IMG/VR virus record: IMGVR_UViG_3300024999_000139
Location: 1 to 53,943 of that record
Source of the DNA: a virus
Lineage: Duplodnaviria; Caudoviricetes
DNA: 53,943 bases
Reading direction: 5' to 3' (one strand)
Below the pieces are notes generated by a model that was not told the DNA's origin, ran no database searches, and saw only the letters and a program-made list of their open reading frames with translations. Numbering within the stretch: position 1 is the stretch's first letter; the number at the start of each line of letters is the position of its first letter. A program made the translations under genes and the position numbers. Below, piece by piece: positions 11,080 through 50,854 of this stretch.

Positions 11080-11166
11080 TGCTACTCTCCTTTAGTTTCC
11101 ATATGTATATAGTATGCCATAATGAAAACTGTTTTAACCCACTATAAAAGACTTGTTTGCTAGGTT

Positions 11167-12810
11167 CTATTCAACATCGAATAATTCCTTATACTGTTGA
11201 AGTGGTAACTTCAGTGTCATCAGAATACTTTTATCATCCGTCAATATATTGATTTCTCCATACTCTTCGTTGATGTTTGAAACCTTACATGGCGAGATAT
11301 TTAATCCCTCTACTCTACGCAAATCAATTTCCTGCATCATTATATTCATCTAGTGTTCTCCTCTCTTATACGTTAAAGCTGTTCATTGAAGTTATTTCCC
11401 ATATTCTCTTTTGGTTACGGAATAATTAAAAGTTATCATTACTGGATATGAATTTTTACAAGTTTGACAATAGTGTCTAATATCTGTAATTCCTTCACCT
11501 TCATTATTAAACGATACCCAAATAACATCTTCGATATTTATATCAAGACTTTTACAGTAAGGACATGGATCGTTACTTATCATTTTGTGTTTAAACACCT
11601 TTCTTATTTGAATTTAAAACACCATTCAGGAATATCACATTCTTTTCTAATATTATAAGGTCTACAGGCACAAGTAATTTCTTTATTGTTTAATTTGCAA
11701 ATAACTTTTACATCATCGTCACAAAACCAATCATGAGGGTCTGGATCTGGCAACACTTGATGTGAAGCACAATCGATACAACTATTAATAGTAATATTCA
11801 TTCTTAACATTTCTCCTTTTAATTCTACTCAAATTTAACTCATTGTCACATTTATTCTTCAACCTTAATGATAATAAAACCATCTTTTATTGCTTTTGCA
11901 TACTGAGTTTTATTATCTGTACTCAATTGACCATAATCTGCATCAATATAATATAACCCATTTTCTTCCCAATGAGCATGAATTTTAAATGCTTCATCCA
12001 TAATAATTACCTCCTAATCCTCAAATATCAATTCTTCTTTTACAACCCAATATCCTTCTTCTAATCCATGTTTCATCCTCTTTTCTTCTATAGACGATTG
12101 CTCTAATTCTCCATCTTCAATCCAAGTTACTTTATACTTGCCATCATTTTCTTTCTCTGCTTTGAATACGAAATCACAAGTAGGAAACAATTTTTTATTC
12201 TTTTCATCTAGTTCAAAGTTAAAAATATCTTTCATGAGAATTAATCATCCTTTCTTTTCTTTAGAAGCAACTCTAATTACTAAATATCTTTTTCTTTAAG
12301 TGTATGTTCTAATTTTGAAATATCATAGCCCATATTACTTAATTGATCCAACCATCTTTGTTCAATTGGCCTCATTATTTTATTATCTTTTATTTCAAAT
12401 ACCTGTATATACACTAGACTTCTAAAACCTTTATCACCAATTTTAAACTCTTTTCTTAATTTGTCAATTTCTAATAAGCTGAAATTTTCATACTCATCTA
12501 AGATATTTTCTACTTCATATCCAACTTTAATTGACTCTCCATTAATTCTGGCAAATACACTAGTATATAAATAATACATTTCTGAAACATTATCTCGTTC
12601 ATTTAATATTTGTTTTAATTCTTTTCTTGCTATTCTTCCGTATCTTATTTTATCTTTGGTTATATAATGAAAAGTATGTTTAGATTCATCTTTCATTATT
12701 ACATCAAAATATTCTTCATTGTCACCACCCGTATATGAATAACTACCTCCAACACCTGATGAAACATTTTTAATATCATTAATTTTAAGACGATTCCAAT
12801 ATTCTTTCAT
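11167..12810 (-). other. cluster of small hypothetical genes (11167-11349, 11392-11598, 11604-11810, 12014-12235, 12280-12810)
   Basis: co-oriented ORFs mostly with RBSs; two have CxxC pairs. Confidence 0.65.
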
Positions 12811-12846
12811 TCAATTTACCTCCTCAATTAAAATAACTCTTTTATG

Positions 12847-46144: not shown

Positions 46145-46441
46145 TTATTTACATACAAATTCATTTGCTAATTTCCAACTTTTAATTTCTCTAATTTGAT
46201 TATCTTTTAATTCTATATAAATACTTTCTTATAATTCTTTAATAATCCTATCTCTTTCTCCAACCGTGAAGTCATATTTACCTTTCTTATAAGGTTGATA
46301 AATTGGAACTTTTGAAGCAAAAGAACAAATATTATAATCAATTTCGCATTTATCATATTTGCATTCTGGAACTAAATTTAGAATATCTGTGTAAGTTTTA
46401 GATAAATTACGTTTGCACCGTCTTATATCGAATCTATCCAT
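46145..46441 (-). pseudogene. gene with internal TAA at 46229-46231, paralogue of 40414..40596
   Basis: gapless alignment across the stop, which sits opposite a Gln (CAA). Confidence 0.7.
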
Positions 46442-49400
46442 TTTATTTATCTCCTTTATGATTTATCGTCTTAACCAACACACCTTTTTCATAATCATCT
46501 CTACCACTAGGACTCAATACCGTAAAATCCATTCCCATTAATTTCATTAATTCTAATCTAAAATTAGCCAACCATCTTTTATGTGCCATATAAGGATTGA
46601 TAAATGAAATAGTCTTATCTTTTTCCATCATTGCATTTAAAATTAATTTCTGATATGGGAGAAATTTAATATCTGGATTAAAATCTTCAATAAGTGGCAC
46701 AGGATTATTATCATAGTAATCTTTAAATTTTGCATATCTTTCTTTGAAACTTAGTTTGTCTTGATCTTGATAATTCATAAAAATAGCCTCCTTTCCCTAA
46801 ATACTATTAACAAGTTGAACAATTTTTCGTGCATTCATGTTTTCTATCTCACTATCCAACAACACATTCTTAAATTCTTCTTTACTAATAACACTCCAAG
46901 ACCCATATCCATCAGGATATTCATAAATTTCAATGTTGCATTCTTCCTCCCAATCACCAATCTTTTTCATATTATGTTTAGTAATTTTCTCTATATCCAG
47001 TGCATGTTCTAAGTAATAAGTTCCAGTAGAATGTGGATATTTATTAGAAAACATAGATGATAAATCTTTAATTGTTTGCTTATTTAATTCAAGAATACTA
47101 TTAATAGATTTAAGTTTATCACAGTATATTTTAACTTCTTGATATTCTTTATCTATCTCTTGGAGATATTTTAGATATTCGTTCAATTTCTTAGTTTTTC
47201 TACTTTCCACTTCATTCAAATACTTTTCTCCTGCTTGAATAAGACTTTGTTTCACAACATTTCCAATATCATTATAGCAACTATCACATATGTAATTTCT
47301 AACTAGATGAGCATTCTCTTCTGGTAAGGGATAATAATTAGTTACTGGATAATATTCTCTGTCATGAAGTTCTTCCTCTTGTCTTGCAAATACTTTGAAC
47401 TGATAATCACATAGATCACATTTAATAATTTCTGAATTACTCATTTGATTTTCCTTCTTTCATGTTTTATATTTTAATACCCTTTAAACTAATTAATACA
47501 TCTATGTATCTTGTCTGTCTCCAAATATTCACCGCCAGTTTTTAAAGCATATGACAATTGTTTTTCAAGATTGTCATTGTCCTCTTCAAGTTTAACCATA
47601 AAAGAAAATAACCTATTAAATGATTCTTGATTAATATATTTCTCTTTTTCGAAATCAGTTTTTTCTAATAATTTTTGGATTATTTTATCGCTCATTGTTT
47701 TCTATCCCCACATAAGGTTTATTTACTTTCCATACTAAACCGCAATCACAATGTAATTTGTCATAAATATCATTACTTGTAATAATTCCATTCACTATAT
47801 GTCCACAAGAGCATATTAATGAGAAAATATGTTCTTTATTATTCATATACTCCCTAATCTCCTCTCTATCCCTTGCTTTGTCTTCCTCAGTCATTGGCAT
47901 TATTCTTCCATGCGAATATTTACCATCTGTACGATCCATTTCTCCAAATGGAAGAATATCACGAAGTTTATCTGAAGAATTTGAATAATGGGTATTTGTT
48001 TCTTTAAGGATTGAGTATTTATTAAATTGTTCCATTATCTATTTCTCACTTTCTAACAAATTATTTTCTTCCAAAATTATGACTGCCTCATCTGAAATCG
48101 TGACTATCATCCAATCATTTTCATTCTTCGACCAAACATCATCTAAAGCATCAATCATTAAAGTCCCATCATTAAGCAATATACAATATTGTCCTTGTTT
48201 GTTGTAAAAATGAACTCCTTCCCAACATGGTTATAGTGATGATACAGGAAGTTCATTAGGTTAAATTAGATTAAACTATCACTTTAATTGGTAAGAAAGG
48301 AAATGATTAAAATCACAAAAATAGATTTAGTTTGTCTAAATACGTTATACAATTGAATTAGCGTCATCTTGCATTTTAATCAACCTCTTTCAAATATTTT
48401 CCTCTAAATGTCACTGGGATAAATTCATCTTCCCTTATAATCTCGTATCTTTTCACATATCCCAACGTATTCAAATCCAATATATCAAAATAGTATAAGT
48501 TTTCATTTTGCTTTAAAGCATCTTTAAGTGTAGTTAATTGATCTGACATAAAACATATGCCACTAAGACTATATTCTTCAATCATTATACAATTTCATCC
48601 TTTCTACATCGTTAATTCCATCTCTGATAATAATCTATTGGTCTGAGTTAAGGTTTCACTAATTAATGTCTTACAACCACCTTCTGGGCTGTTAGGTAGC
48701 ATTTCAGTAAGATATTTAATGTATGCTTCTAATGCATTGTATATTATGTTTTTCTCTTGTTTAGAAACTTCTAATGTTTGTGTAATTTTCATTTATTTAA
48801 TCTCCTTCTCTTTTAATTATTTTAATCCACGTATTATATCATTATACTGATGTAATAATTCTACCGCATTAGTTAAAGTTCTTACTTTACCTACATCATC
48901 CATTGAGACACTTCTTGAATAATCTTTTCTAATTTCAAGTAGATAAATGATAGTTTCTTGGATTAATAATTCTGTTTCAGTCATTGTTTTAAAATTCCTT
49001 TCTTCTCATCAAACTAACCTTCTTTTCTGATTATAATTTACTTTCTAATTCCTTTATTCTTTTTTCATATTTCTGTGTTAATAATCTAATGCTTTGTAAA
49101 AATGAAATCTGACTAATAATCCAAACAATTATTAATGAAATATGATTAATGTATGGTATTGCCATTGATAAAAATAGTAAAGGTAAAATCATAGCAAAGC
49201 CACCTAACCAATATCCTAAACTTCCTTTGCCGAATAAATCTTTCATAAATTATTCTCCTTTCTAAAATGAATAAATCTGACTATTGATTACTCTTTACTT
49301 CTATTTCTTCATCCACTTTTGATTCAATTTTATTCTCATACTGCTCTTTAGTAAGCCAACTGAAAGTAAAATATTTAGGATTGAACCCATCGGCAATAAT

Positions 49401-50854
49401 TTTATTAGTTATATGATCTTTAAGCGAACTACTGTCTAAATGGTTGGTTAATAGTTTTGTAAAGTCATCAAAAGTTAGTTCGGCAGAATATATAACTTTA
49501 TCCTTTATCAATGCACCATAATATGCTTTTAATTGATATATCATTTGATAACCTCCTCTTTCCATACATGATTATTTTTCATTTCCACTTCTCTTTTAGC
49601 TTTTGTTTTATATTGATTAACAAAATAAAGCATTTTTAAATATTCAATTGGATTTTGCATGATCATCCCAATTCCATTAAATTTTATAATACCAGCATGT
49701 ATTTGTGAATCTCTTGAATAATCGAATAAACTCCCTTTCCATCTGCTATTATCCCATTCGCATTTGTTAAACTCTTGGATAAAAATATTATTACTGCTTT
49801 TTCCATATCTCTCAGTGTGATCTTTTACTTGACTTATATGTACTCCATAATCAATAAGGAGTATAATACTCCCAATTGCCAATATAAATAATATAATAGT
49901 TAATAAAGTCATTTTATAAAACTTCCTTCCTCAATTGAAATTGCTGTTTTATTCAACGTCACCATATAATCCGTTAGGTGTAGGATGTAAATTATTTCTT
50001 AACCATAATTGATTCAAATCAAAAACTTCAATTATTTGTCCAACTATTAATTTATCTCCTATTTTTATATCCATCAAGTGATCTTCTTTTGTTGTATGAT
50101 AGTAAAAATTTAAATTGTCATCAAGATTATCTAATGATTCTAACATACATCCGCTATTTAAAAGACATCCATAATCTAGTAAATAATTAGGATCATATAA
50201 AAACTTAATACAATTTTCATTTGTGGCATCTTTTAAACATACAACACCATATCTCCCACCACTTGTTTTTACAATCATTCCATTTTTTAATTCTGATTTT
50301 TTCATATTGTATTATCCTATCTAATTTATTTATCTAACTTTTCTCCACAAAACGGACAATAACTAATATGTCTCATTACACAATCATTTAGGATATTGTA
50401 TAGTTCCCAACCACGAGACAAACTAAAATAAATAGTATAATCATTACATCTATGTGGTTGATTTTTACTTAATAATTCAAAATCATATTTACTTAACATT
50501 ATCAATTTCCTCCATATAATTTAATTCATCCCAATATTTTTTAATCCAAATATCACAAGTAGCATATAATTCATCATTTCTATAATAAATATTAGAAGGG
50601 AAAATTAAATCCTCTTTATCTTTGCATCCCAAATCTTTTAATCTTTTTTCACATATAAGTAAAATTTCTTCAATTCTTTCTGATAATTCTTTTACCTTGC
50701 AGTCAATTCCTACAATAAAACCTTCTGATGTCATAAAATTATTCATCTCTAATCGTCCTTTCTTTCTTATACTATAAATGCTAAGTTTTAAGTTAAGATA
50801 TGACTCTTAAACCATTATCACAAACGAATTTAAAAGTCATATCGTTTACATATT

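Follow-up and report, generated by a model that had tools for sequence, protein, structure and literature searches.

Whether the short sequence that recurs at the boundaries of small genes in the virus record IMGVR_UViG_3300024999_000139 (Duplodnaviria; Caudoviricetes) marks recombination sites that shuffle gene cassettes, operators of a repressor or a signal of another kind is the question that this locus raises. The stretch of DNA analysed, hereafter the window, comprises the entire virus record of 53,943 bases, has a G+C content of 27-30% and a negative GC skew in all 2-kb bins. Open reading frame (ORF) calls made on both strands place 106 of the 109 genes on the minus strand, and because of this gene orientation the plus-strand 20-mers in which the repeat was initially recognised are the reverse complement of an element that reads (T)CC[T/C]AG[C/A]AAA-N6-TTTTA in the sense of the genes.

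The oriented intergenic repeat is real and non-random. The pattern CCTAGMAAA-N6-TTTTA has five exact matches in the window, all on the minus strand, against 0.00 expected from 100 dinucleotide shuffles, and these are the five 20-mers that the first-pass annotation had placed at 11145, 24085, 27402, 28673 and 45668, now confirmed on the plus strand and in one orientation. Both blocks are invariant in the five copies bar one C/A position, and the 6-nt spacer varies. The second block also emerges when it is not imposed, as 5 of the 13 sense-strand CCTAG pentamers continue with [C/A]AAA, a variable hexamer and TTTTA. Allowing up to two mismatches gives 10 matches against 3.28 expected, eight of them sense but two on the plus strand within genes, and the earlier count of at least ten copies therefore holds only loosely. 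A weight matrix built solely from seven relatives' sites and applied to the window has its six top hits all in sense-intergenic positions; at the threshold of 12 bits it returns 10 hits, of which eight are sense-intergenic, one is sense-coding and one antisense-coding, where sense-intergenic positions have a share of 7.25% (binomial p=3e-8). Three more indel variants (22901, 35447 and 28002) were recognised by eye. Consistently, TAGCAA is the top-enriched non-Shine-Dalgarno hexamer on the intergenic sense strand, with 10 occurrences against 2.2 expected and none of its reverse complement.

The arms of the element are only in part mirror images of each other. The left block CCTAGCAAA is conserved and asymmetric, and the inverted AAA/TTT arms in which the geometry of a tyrosine-recombinase site had been seen are confined to the inner three bases, except that in 8 of 18 sites the right side extends as WRGG(AT) and an imperfect 11-6-11 palindrome results (counted by eye). 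The strongest palindromic case, ATCCTAGCAAA-CCACTG-TTTTATAGGAT, occurs in the related record G009. Arm variants also occur together, with A at position 6 in 5/5 CCCAG sites and C in 13/14 CCTAG sites; the variant forms are CCTAGC versus CCCAGA and TTTTAWAGG versus ATTCGATG. The shorter AAA-N6-TTT forms, about nine of which had been listed as further copies, do not stand as a class: genome-wide there are 120 against 126.8 expected, and of the 33 in intergenic DNA (17.1 +/- 4.5 expected) nine fall in strong sites, several of the other 24 being A-tracts before -35 boxes (by eye). On the intergenic sense strand the spacing from A-run to T-run peaks at 6-7 nt (AAA-N6-TTT 33, AAA-N7-TTT 37), the comparison spacings N4, N5 and N8 giving 17-20 each and TTT-N6-AAA nine; this excess consists partly of UP-element-like A-tracts ahead of -35 boxes. 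No description of the motif was found in the literature searched by 9-mer on both strands and by SPbeta-repeat topic: among the matches listed, the 9-mer belongs to primers or to unrelated contexts, and the topic yields the MrpR papers and reviews. Within that literature the motif is previously undescribed, while the kind to which it belongs, lineage-specific phage regulatory repeats, is already known.

Judged by its predicted gene content, the window is the early/accessory arm of an SPbeta-like phage that is large and temperate and infects a spore-forming Firmicute. The top named matches of a Pnkp/RNA-ligase fusion are SPbeta-like phages (47-48% identity), YopX-, YpsA/YoqJ- and YopQ-type genes are present, and further genes encode Thg1, a DNA methylase, UvdE, two PemK/MazF-domain proteins and AgrB. 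The minus strand also encodes a SigB/SigF/SigG-family sigma factor (32940..33662; Pfam Sigma70_r2 and r4, NCBIfam 9e-33, under the family cutoff) and a SpoVT-like AbrB-family regulator (36572..37093; TIGR02851 1.3e-60, 204 bits versus a cutoff of 236), and the occurrence of such sporulation-type regulators on a phage points to a low-GC, spore-forming host. Megablast against named phages gave no match to the window, a search of bacterial genomes with the protein of 4033..4839 found no relative, and the window holds no Rfam family match and no tRNA. Mosaic relatives were instead found by protein-guided searches, and the whole records were then scanned for the motif; the resulting comparison set consists of the window and eight fetched records, 931 kb in total. 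Six of these are true relatives, each with 15-34 of the window's 115 proteins. G006 has just 2/115 proteins in common with the window, and G007, an otherwise unrelated record, has three, one of which is an HNH/NUMOD endonuclease, together with three motif copies, a joint occurrence that may be a coincidence. A 15-base pattern retrieved 87 single-copy loci from the viral collection, mostly chance matches, and the eight that were pursued were chosen as coming from the same sample series as the known relatives. Mosaicism is extreme throughout, nearly each small gene being common to a different subset of the six relatives at 50-99% identity, and at 28697..29182, for example, a 487-nt block is 97.5% identical to G001 within neighbouring sequence of 74-83%.

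Orientation and placement are the most consistent properties of the element. Across the comparison set CC[TC]AG[CA]AAA-N6-TTTTA has 19 hits and the reversed control none. Sixteen hits lie in sense between co-directional genes, two are sense but within a gene according to a crude gene caller, and the single antisense hit, in G006, is probably due to chance. The six true relatives contribute nine hits (seven distinct, as G009 and G010 have sites in common), all of them sense and intergenic, at 0-3 copies per record of 49-227 kb, with two copies in a 227-kb record rated 100% complete. Of roughly 94 intergenic junctions in the window, 8-9 carry a site, and the spacers concerned are mostly 40-140 nt long and devoid of promoters. 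Relative to the preceding stop codon, the start of the motif lies at -5 to +7 nt in 11/16 intergenic cases, whereas the following start codon is 4 to 106 nt away. At a G007 site the N6 contains the ribosome-binding site of the downstream gene, the ATG of which stands 4 nt past the site end. This arrangement makes a promoter of the downstream gene less likely and has no bearing on whether the element is a DNA site. The offsets to the upstream ORF vary (-5, +1, +2, +3, +6, +7), and a coding, stop-codon readthrough or frameshift role was rejected by eye.

The individual copies, all on the minus strand, illustrate how closely the element adjoins the upstream gene. As the first-pass annotation had noted, the long copies sit at gene 3' ends and in places supply the stop codon. 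The copy CCTAGCAAACAAATATTTTA (24085..24104; exact match, 26.3 bits) provides the TAG of the YopX-family gene 24100..24444 and is followed after 25 nt by the Thg1-like gene 23475..24059, and in G008 the identical 20-mer stands upstream of Thg1 with a different upstream gene. Likewise, the TAG of CCTAGCAAATACTCATTTTA (27402..27421; exact match, 22.3 bits) ends the gene 27417..27707, and here a sigma-A-like promoter, TTGACT-17-TATATT, begins 44 nt downstream. The exact copy CCTAGCAAACAAGTCTTTTA (11145..11164; 25.6 bits) lies 2 nt past the stop of 11167..11349 and 65 nt ahead of the DUF1385 gene 10204..11079, and CCTAGCAAAATCTAGTTTTA (28673..28692; exact match, 14.7 bits) lies 3 nt past the stop of 28696..29157 and 26 nt ahead of the start of 28491..28646. 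The fifth exact copy, CCTAGAAAAGCATTGTTTTA (45668..45687; 23.6 bits), is located 43 nt upstream of the gene 45082..45624; its TAG ends an unannotated Cys-rich frame of at least 23 codons (about 45685-45756, minus strand; by eye). Three additional copies with mismatches start either at a stop codon or no more than 1 nt away from one. The near copy CCTAACAAAATCAAATTTGA (20424..20443; two mismatches, 12.2 bits) is a CCTAA variant whose TAA is the stop of 20439..20864, 29 nt ahead of the Pnkp/RNA-ligase gene 18202..20394; the variant copy CCCAGAAAAGTGTGGTTTTA (30021..30040; 21.2 bits, found with up to two mismatches) lies 1 nt past the stop of 30042..30269 and 25 nt ahead of the start of 29654..29995; and CCAAGCAAATATTAAATTTA (34660..34679; two mismatches, 19.1 bits) lies 1 nt past the TAA that ends 34681..35037 and directly adjoins the ribosome-binding site of a hydrophobic 39-codon ORF starting at 34642 (34523..34642, minus strand). 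A weak, uncertain candidate, ACATAAAAGAGTTATTTTAA (12829..12848; 10.3 bits), is found just past the stop of 12847..13248. The variants recognised by eye are CATAGCAAATAATTCATTCGATG (22879..22901), an indel/arm variant missed by the search patterns whose TAG is the stop of 22897..23055, and the uncertain indel variants TAGCATAAATGAATCGTTTTAAT (35425..35447) and TAGCTTAAAACTTTGATTTTAAA (27980..28002), with TAGs that are the stops of 35445..35666 and 28000..28236, respectively.

At orthologous places the element is either highly conserved or partly missing. The copy at 24104 matches G008 in 20/20 positions, that at 45687 matches G008 in 19/20, with homology beginning at the motif 5' edge, and that at 11164 matches G003 in 19/20 with no homology of the flanks. 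For the fully identical 20-mer the adjacent untranslated region (UTR) is visibly less conserved, the whole homologous stretch being 79% identical. At three other orthologous places the spacer is kept and one or both arms are absent (G008 at 30040, where neither arm is kept, G002 at 24104 and G001 at 28692, where G001 has an additional small gene and only a degenerate copy). The coexistence of conserved and arm-less orthologous sites means that the site is gained and lost in place and does not travel as the end of a mobile cassette.

A hairpin, an intrinsic terminator and a sigma-A promoter were each considered for the copies. An RNA hairpin was rejected, since the 15 sites folded with 35-nt flanks have z-scores between -3.27 and +1.91 that average about zero, with one value below -2; a closing stem around the motif shows no excess (mean length 4.39 versus 4.64 in cross-pairings), and no Rfam family matches the motif. 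Terminator-like sites number two and one in the 40 kb scanned, against 3.4 and 3.6 expected, and an intrinsic terminator was rejected, there being no terminator-like site at any copy and no hairpin. The promoter scan gave no excess over shuffles (136 versus 135.2; 150 versus 149.8), a sigma-A-like promoter lies within about 70 nt at only one of eight sites (27421), several spacers being too short for one, and no copy overlaps a sigma-A-like promoter. The motif as a sigma-A promoter was also rejected, since its conserved blocks are 6 nt apart and -10-like hexamers follow it at inconsistent distances (by eye). When positions are compared by eye, the sites stand one to five genes before the next sigma-A-like promoter, and distal genes, for example those of Thg1, the Pnkp/ligase and the sigma-factor operon, are therefore found behind a site.

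The explanation tentatively preferred, at rather less than even probability, is an oriented DNA site that is bound by a predicted sequence-specific protein and acts on transcription of the long early operons. On this view the element acts in cis, is asymmetric and specific to the lineage, spans about 20-28 bp, (A/T)TCC[T/C]AG[C/A]AAA-N6-TTTTA[A/T], sometimes with RGGAT, and would be read on double-stranded DNA by a protein that is either conserved in the phage group or supplied by the host. The bound protein would act on RNA polymerase travelling through long, terminator-poor early operons, and the site could thus serve as an orientation-dependent roadblock or attenuator that gates the distal genes in a stoperator- or SPBRE/MrpR-like manner. 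We infer protein binding, action at the DNA level and the effect on elongation. Asymmetric sites in sense orientation only, short spacers, terminator-less operons and a position one to five genes before a promoter together suggest the anatomy of a roadblock or attenuator, and the palindromic extension is more readily explained by a DNA-binding protein with two domains or two subunits than by an RNA signal that has no structure. For stoperators, PMC9283540 describes an orientation that correlates with transcription and a loss of repression upon reversal.

Several observations weigh against this explanation. With 8-9 sites in the 54-kb window and 0-3 in the record of each relative, the element is far below stoperator numbers, and no site lies over an early promoter, though one would expect an operator at a promoter as well if this were a repressor system. 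The arms lacking at three orthologous places imply that the site is often dispensable. The sense orientation and the closeness to stop codons suit an RNA-level signal equally well. Finally, the protein partner is a candidate at most, and the one that suggests itself, MrpR, splits into two types of 25-32% identity, with the motif present alongside both.

The MrpR-like repressor deserves attention as the only recombinase-fold product recognised in the window. Its gene is a fragment at the far end, encoding the first 51 codons and truncated by the record end (2..154, minus strand), and is assigned by similarity to a 351-residue protein of G002, with the N-terminus of which its product is identical in 30/48 positions (63%, E=7e-16); the G002 protein in turn matches Pfam MrpR_N_CB (1.5e-12, 48.4 bits versus a cutoff of 27) and SPbeta YopR (E=4e-7). 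The gene follows a YopQ-like gene (170..1555, minus strand; 24% over 389 residues, E=3e-18, in a blastx of SPbeta versus the window proteins), which is the same order as in SPbeta. The MrpR-like proteins of G001, G008 and G009 are 72-79% identical mutually and 25-32% identical to the G002 type, which the window fragment resembles. The presence of the motif with such dissimilar proteins speaks against an MrpR operator and is better accommodated by a reader that is conserved across the group or host-supplied, although a conserved recognition surface would still be compatible with it. The predicted MrpR-like repressor is therefore a doubtful candidate binder and carries about one third of the probability assigned to the protein-bound DNA site as a whole. 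The initial idea of an operator of a recombinase-fold repressor, analogous to SPBRE, consequently survives in part: the MrpR-family gene, the sense orientation and the copy number agree with it, the near absence of promoters (1/8) and the two MrpR types do not, and what remains plausible from the sequence is a protein-binding regulatory site. Other long repeats that might be MrpR operators were not found in the window, and no common word was seen by eye at the window promoters. The conserved proteins of 2373..3206 and 5136..5975 were rejected as binders, having only weak membrane-protein-like matches, and no repressor with a helix-turn-helix and a stoperator domain, the type of monomeric protein that in stoperator systems blocks elongation in one orientation of its site, was recognised in the window by Pfam or PHROGs.

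For comparison, an SPBRE consensus, roughly CAAATACAAAAAATATGTATA, was derived from the SPbeta record NC_001884. With up to three mismatches it has 11 copies in SPbeta, all in sense to the downstream gene and located at the ten genes named in PMC10516654. Several of them read TAGACA-N17-TATAAT (for example 64160, 99581 and 116150 in NC_001884; by eye), and SPBRE seems to hold a complete sigma-A-type promoter with its conserved part in the promoter spacer. The copy at 116150 begins 12 nt past the yorY stop, in a 66-nt spacer.

Mosaicism at the copies was assessed by comparing the window with five relatives, using 73 high-scoring segment pairs (HSPs) of at least 100 nt. HSP ends occur at all six informative motif junctions, and no HSP spans any of them; among the 52 remaining junctions, ends occur at 41 and spans at 18. 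Counted by event, motif junctions have 13 ends and no spans versus 62 ends and 33 spans elsewhere (p=0.009, the events not being independent); counted by junction, the difference is not significant for either spans (p=0.16) or ends (p=0.58). The HSP ends fall at the motif 5' edge (24105 and 45688 in the comparison with G008), outside the motif by 6-7 nt on either side, or 9-16 nt downstream of it, where they coincide with the ribosome-binding site of the next gene. No homology breakpoint versus the relatives lies within the N6, and the prediction of the first-pass annotation that gene gain and loss would break there was not upheld. Strain-variant evidence comes from four DNA runs of one study, which hold a variant swarm with many alternative joints; no RNA run was listed among the sequencing runs. 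Among the 15 joints listed, most are at other gene borders, the back-joints at 24076 and 30011 are 9-10 nt downstream of motif ends, and none is in an N6; a joint at 12831 falls within the weak candidate copy 12829..12848.

These data bear most directly on the two explanations that invoke recombination. The copies could be integron-like sites, or att sites of another tyrosine recombinase, at which cassettes of one gene are excised and inserted, a reading suggested by the AAA/TTT arms around a 6-bp spacer, by the 11-6-11 imperfect palindromes of some copies, by the MrpR-family recombinase-fold gene and by a left arm, TTCCTAG, in common with B. subtilis dif (PMC3025954), but now largely refuted and best considered very improbable. 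No Phage_integrase domain is present among the 115 window proteins at E<=1e-4, although, the record being a fragment, such a gene may lie outside, and SPbeta MrpR is reported in PMC10516654 to have lost recombinase function. The genes are not each flanked by sites, all copies are direct repeats with unlike spacers, and their N6 is free of breakpoints. As to features of attC, the element is 20-28 nt long, shows no fold and has no GTTRRRY in its consensus. By contrast, attC sites are imperfect inverted repeats of about 60-140 nt that fold single-stranded and end in a GTTRRRY core. An integron-like cassette array, as initially hypothesised, was thus rejected for want of an integrase, of an attC hairpin or fold and of breakpoints in the N6, with sites at fewer than one-tenth of the junctions. 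A dif/Xer site was rejected as well: the inner ATAA...TTAT arms of dif are missing from the motif, the table of PMC3025954 has no dif with CCTAGCAA, and CCTAG is found in 0/19 of its Clostridia rows (17 predicted dif, two none). A looser recombination linker, that is, a short conserved joint used in homologous or site-specific swapping of single-gene modules among phages, would be a weak form of the initial cassette idea and is unlikely, with several observations in its favour. The region is extremely mosaic, with differing subsets of relatives; no homology crosses the six informative junctions; the same 20-mer precedes Thg1 in G008 behind another upstream gene; the 19/20 copy in G003 stands without flank homology; and, depending on the comparison, the motif moves either with the module that precedes it or with the one that follows. 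A precedent exists in PeSL recombination, which shuffles ORFs and yields mini-circles according to PMC2839356. Nevertheless, the association is not significant per junction and its events are not independent, nearly all junctions are mosaic and yet only 8-9 carry a site, the breakpoints are at the outer edges or downstream and not in the N6, the unlike spacers would block tyrosine-recombinase exchange between sites, the listed strain-variant joints are mostly elsewhere, and a recombination role alone leaves the strict orientation unexplained. A more specific form, in which the oriented linker would be read by a recombinase-fold or annealing protein and the early region would be a loose cassette array among SPbeta-like phages, is distinctly unlikely: the absence of crossings at motif junctions (0/13 events) and the identical 20-mers in unlike contexts speak for it, the per-junction test and the lack of joints inside the N6 against it. 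If true, such a linker array would be a Firmicute-phage counterpart of the T4 PeSLs or of plasmid pdif modules.

The remaining alternatives involve no recombination. An RNA-level signal at cistron junctions, with an endoribonuclease or RNA-binding protein of host or phage that processes or stabilises the transcript or couples its translation, is rather unlikely, albeit not negligible. In its favour, the hits are clearly on the sense strand in 16/19 cases (9/9 in true relatives), and with the motif at -5 to +7 nt from the stop in 11/16 cases, a terminating ribosome would cover it. Two PemK/MazF-type endoribonuclease-domain proteins and an RNA-repair set are encoded in the window, and the occurrence with differing MrpR types is as expected if conserved host machinery reads the motif. 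Conserved secondary structure is, however, absent by the z-scores and helix lengths given above, as is an Rfam match; the palindromic extension of some sites is more DNA-site-like, the start-codon distance of 4 to 106 nt leaves no fixed translational operator, and several spacers, at about 40-50 nt, are so short that some closeness to the stop codon is inevitable. A promoter or promoter part for phage-directed transcription, served for instance by the SigF/SigG-like factor of 32940..33662, would likewise explain a sense orientation upstream of genes, and the window and G009 each have near copies that precede the sigma gene by about 1-1.5 kb. It is quite improbable, as the blocks are 6 nt apart and not 15-19 nt as in sigma-70-family promoters, no -10-like hexamer follows consistently at a fixed distance (by eye), one site includes a ribosome-binding site and is separated from the ATG by 4 nt, and two copies in a 227-kb record rated 100% complete are too few for a promoter class; moreover, the sigma gene is present only in the window, G009 and G010, while the motif also occurs in G002, G003 and G008, which are incomplete records. 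It is also conceivable, if distinctly unlikely, that the copies have no function of their own and are diverged descendants of one intergenic or 5'-UTR segment that spread with gene modules and were kept by chance. Neighbouring sequence is indeed also common, as in TTTTAAGCTATAT...AGGAGG between site 28692 and a G002 spacer, a 42-nt UTR repeat occurs at 22611 and 24048, and arms are lost at orthologous places in relatives. Against chance retention, the blocks are conserved and the spacer is not in copies found by their first five bases only, the matrix of other phages recovers the motif, the 20/20 match stands beside less conserved UTR in a 79% identical stretch, and the 19/20 island in G003 has no flank homology. 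Strand-specific nick sites exist in some phages, and readings of this sort, beyond those considered here, are together given a similarly low probability.

For the long arrays of small early genes that SPbeta-like phages carry, the known regulation consists largely of MrpR/SPBRE and the arbitrium system. The motif is common to phages with different master repressors and precedes the RNA-repair genes Thg1 and Pnkp/ligase as well as a sporulation-type sigma-factor operon, and if regulatory it would indicate that the distal early genes are governed by a conserved regulatory layer. It also offers a practical landmark for aligning mosaic regions that are otherwise unalignable, and if functionless it would be an ordinary lineage-specific repeat.

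Several other genes and sequences of the window, all on the minus strand, merit mention. The RNA-repair-looking cluster at 17545..24059 has two motif copies directly before the ligase fusion and Thg1 and comprises a CTP_transf_like nucleotidyltransferase (17545..18096), the kinase-phosphatase-RNA-ligase fusion of 730 residues (18202..20394), an HD-domain protein (20439..20864) and the Thg1-like tRNA-His guanylyltransferase (23475..24059). A block at 2373..9624 is conserved in 6/6 relatives and encodes an AgrB-like protein (3370..4008), two paralogous proteins of ~278 residues with no clear family and weak membrane-like matches (2373..3206 and 5136..5975), a DUF5317 protein (6051..6671) and the PemK/MazF-domain proteins of 4033..4839, which has an N-terminal extension, and 9244..9624; to judge from these predicted products, it may be a quorum-sensing or toxin-like module beside the lysogeny genes. 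The large, free-standing HNH/NUMOD-type (I-HmuI-like) endonuclease of 6664..8454 is the one held in common with G007. The product of 39650..40384 has a metallo-beta-lactamase fold and scores 49.2 bits for the anti-Pycsar Apyc1 family, just short of the Pfam cutoff of 50 (E=6.5e-13), making it a possible candidate for cyclic-nucleotide-degrading counter-defence. At 13281..15622 a Ser/Thr kinase-domain protein of 567 residues adjoins a PP2C-like phosphatase, and the pair is 79-89% identical in G001 and G002. A common stretch of about 36 nt at about 46150-46185 and about 40395-40430 resembles paralogous ORF ends (...WKLANEFVCK and ...WKLASEFICR; by eye), and as it falls in 110- and 273-nt gaps, unannotated small ORFs or gene remnants are likely there.

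Comparison with known systems places the element closest to regulatory repeats. The pdif modules of Acinetobacter plasmids carry Xer/dif-type sites, and with attC and Xer-dif sites in general the motif has in common the short arms around a 6-bp centre and the location at gene borders, yet it lacks an integron integrase and a folded attC, its copies are direct with unlike centres, and breakpoints fall outside the centre. The SAS/ESAS of Cluster K mycobacteriophages similarly are short, oriented and conserved motifs that precede a subset of genes in one lineage. SAS, however, includes the ribosome-binding site and lies 3-8 nt from the start codon, in contrast to the present motif, which is 4-106 nt from it and hugs the upstream stop codon. 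With respect to dif proper, only the outer TTCCTAG is in common, and with sites of the B. subtilis group only (PMC3025954); the inner ATAA/TTAT arms of the 28-bp 11-6-11 site have no counterpart. The PeSLs of T4-type phages are also repeated intergenic elements in hyperplastic regions of small ORFans and coincide with insertion, deletion and replacement joints, but in PMC2839356 they are described as a strong sigma-70-like promoter with a terminator stem-loop and are associated with mini-circles, whereas the present motif has neither promoter nor stem-loop and shows no sign of circles. SPBRE belongs to the same phage kinship, the SPbeta relationship and the MrpR-family gene being common to both systems. 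It has a similar copy number, about ten, each copy being oriented with the gene that follows and placed before its start codon, and an opening TAG(A)CAAA is found in many copies of both elements. The remaining sequence is unrelated, and the intergenic regions that contain SPBRE measure between 66 and about 950 nt, mostly above 100 nt, and are termed promoter regions in PMC10516654, while the present motif occurs mostly in promoterless 40-140-nt spacers and alongside very different MrpR-like proteins. The stoperators of Cluster A mycobacteriophages (L5 gp71-type) resemble it in arrangement, being short, asymmetric, dispersed sites in short intergenic spaces and oriented with transcription (PMC9283540). 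They differ in being 13-mers with more than 20 copies per roughly 50-kb genome that include an early-promoter operator, against a bipartite site of 20-28 bp with an N6, 8-9 copies in 54 kb and none at a promoter, and in having actinobacterial hosts, the low-GC spore-forming host of the present phage being predicted from its genes alone. Should a binder of the motif be found, stoperator-type control of elongation would extend beyond the actinobacteriophages.

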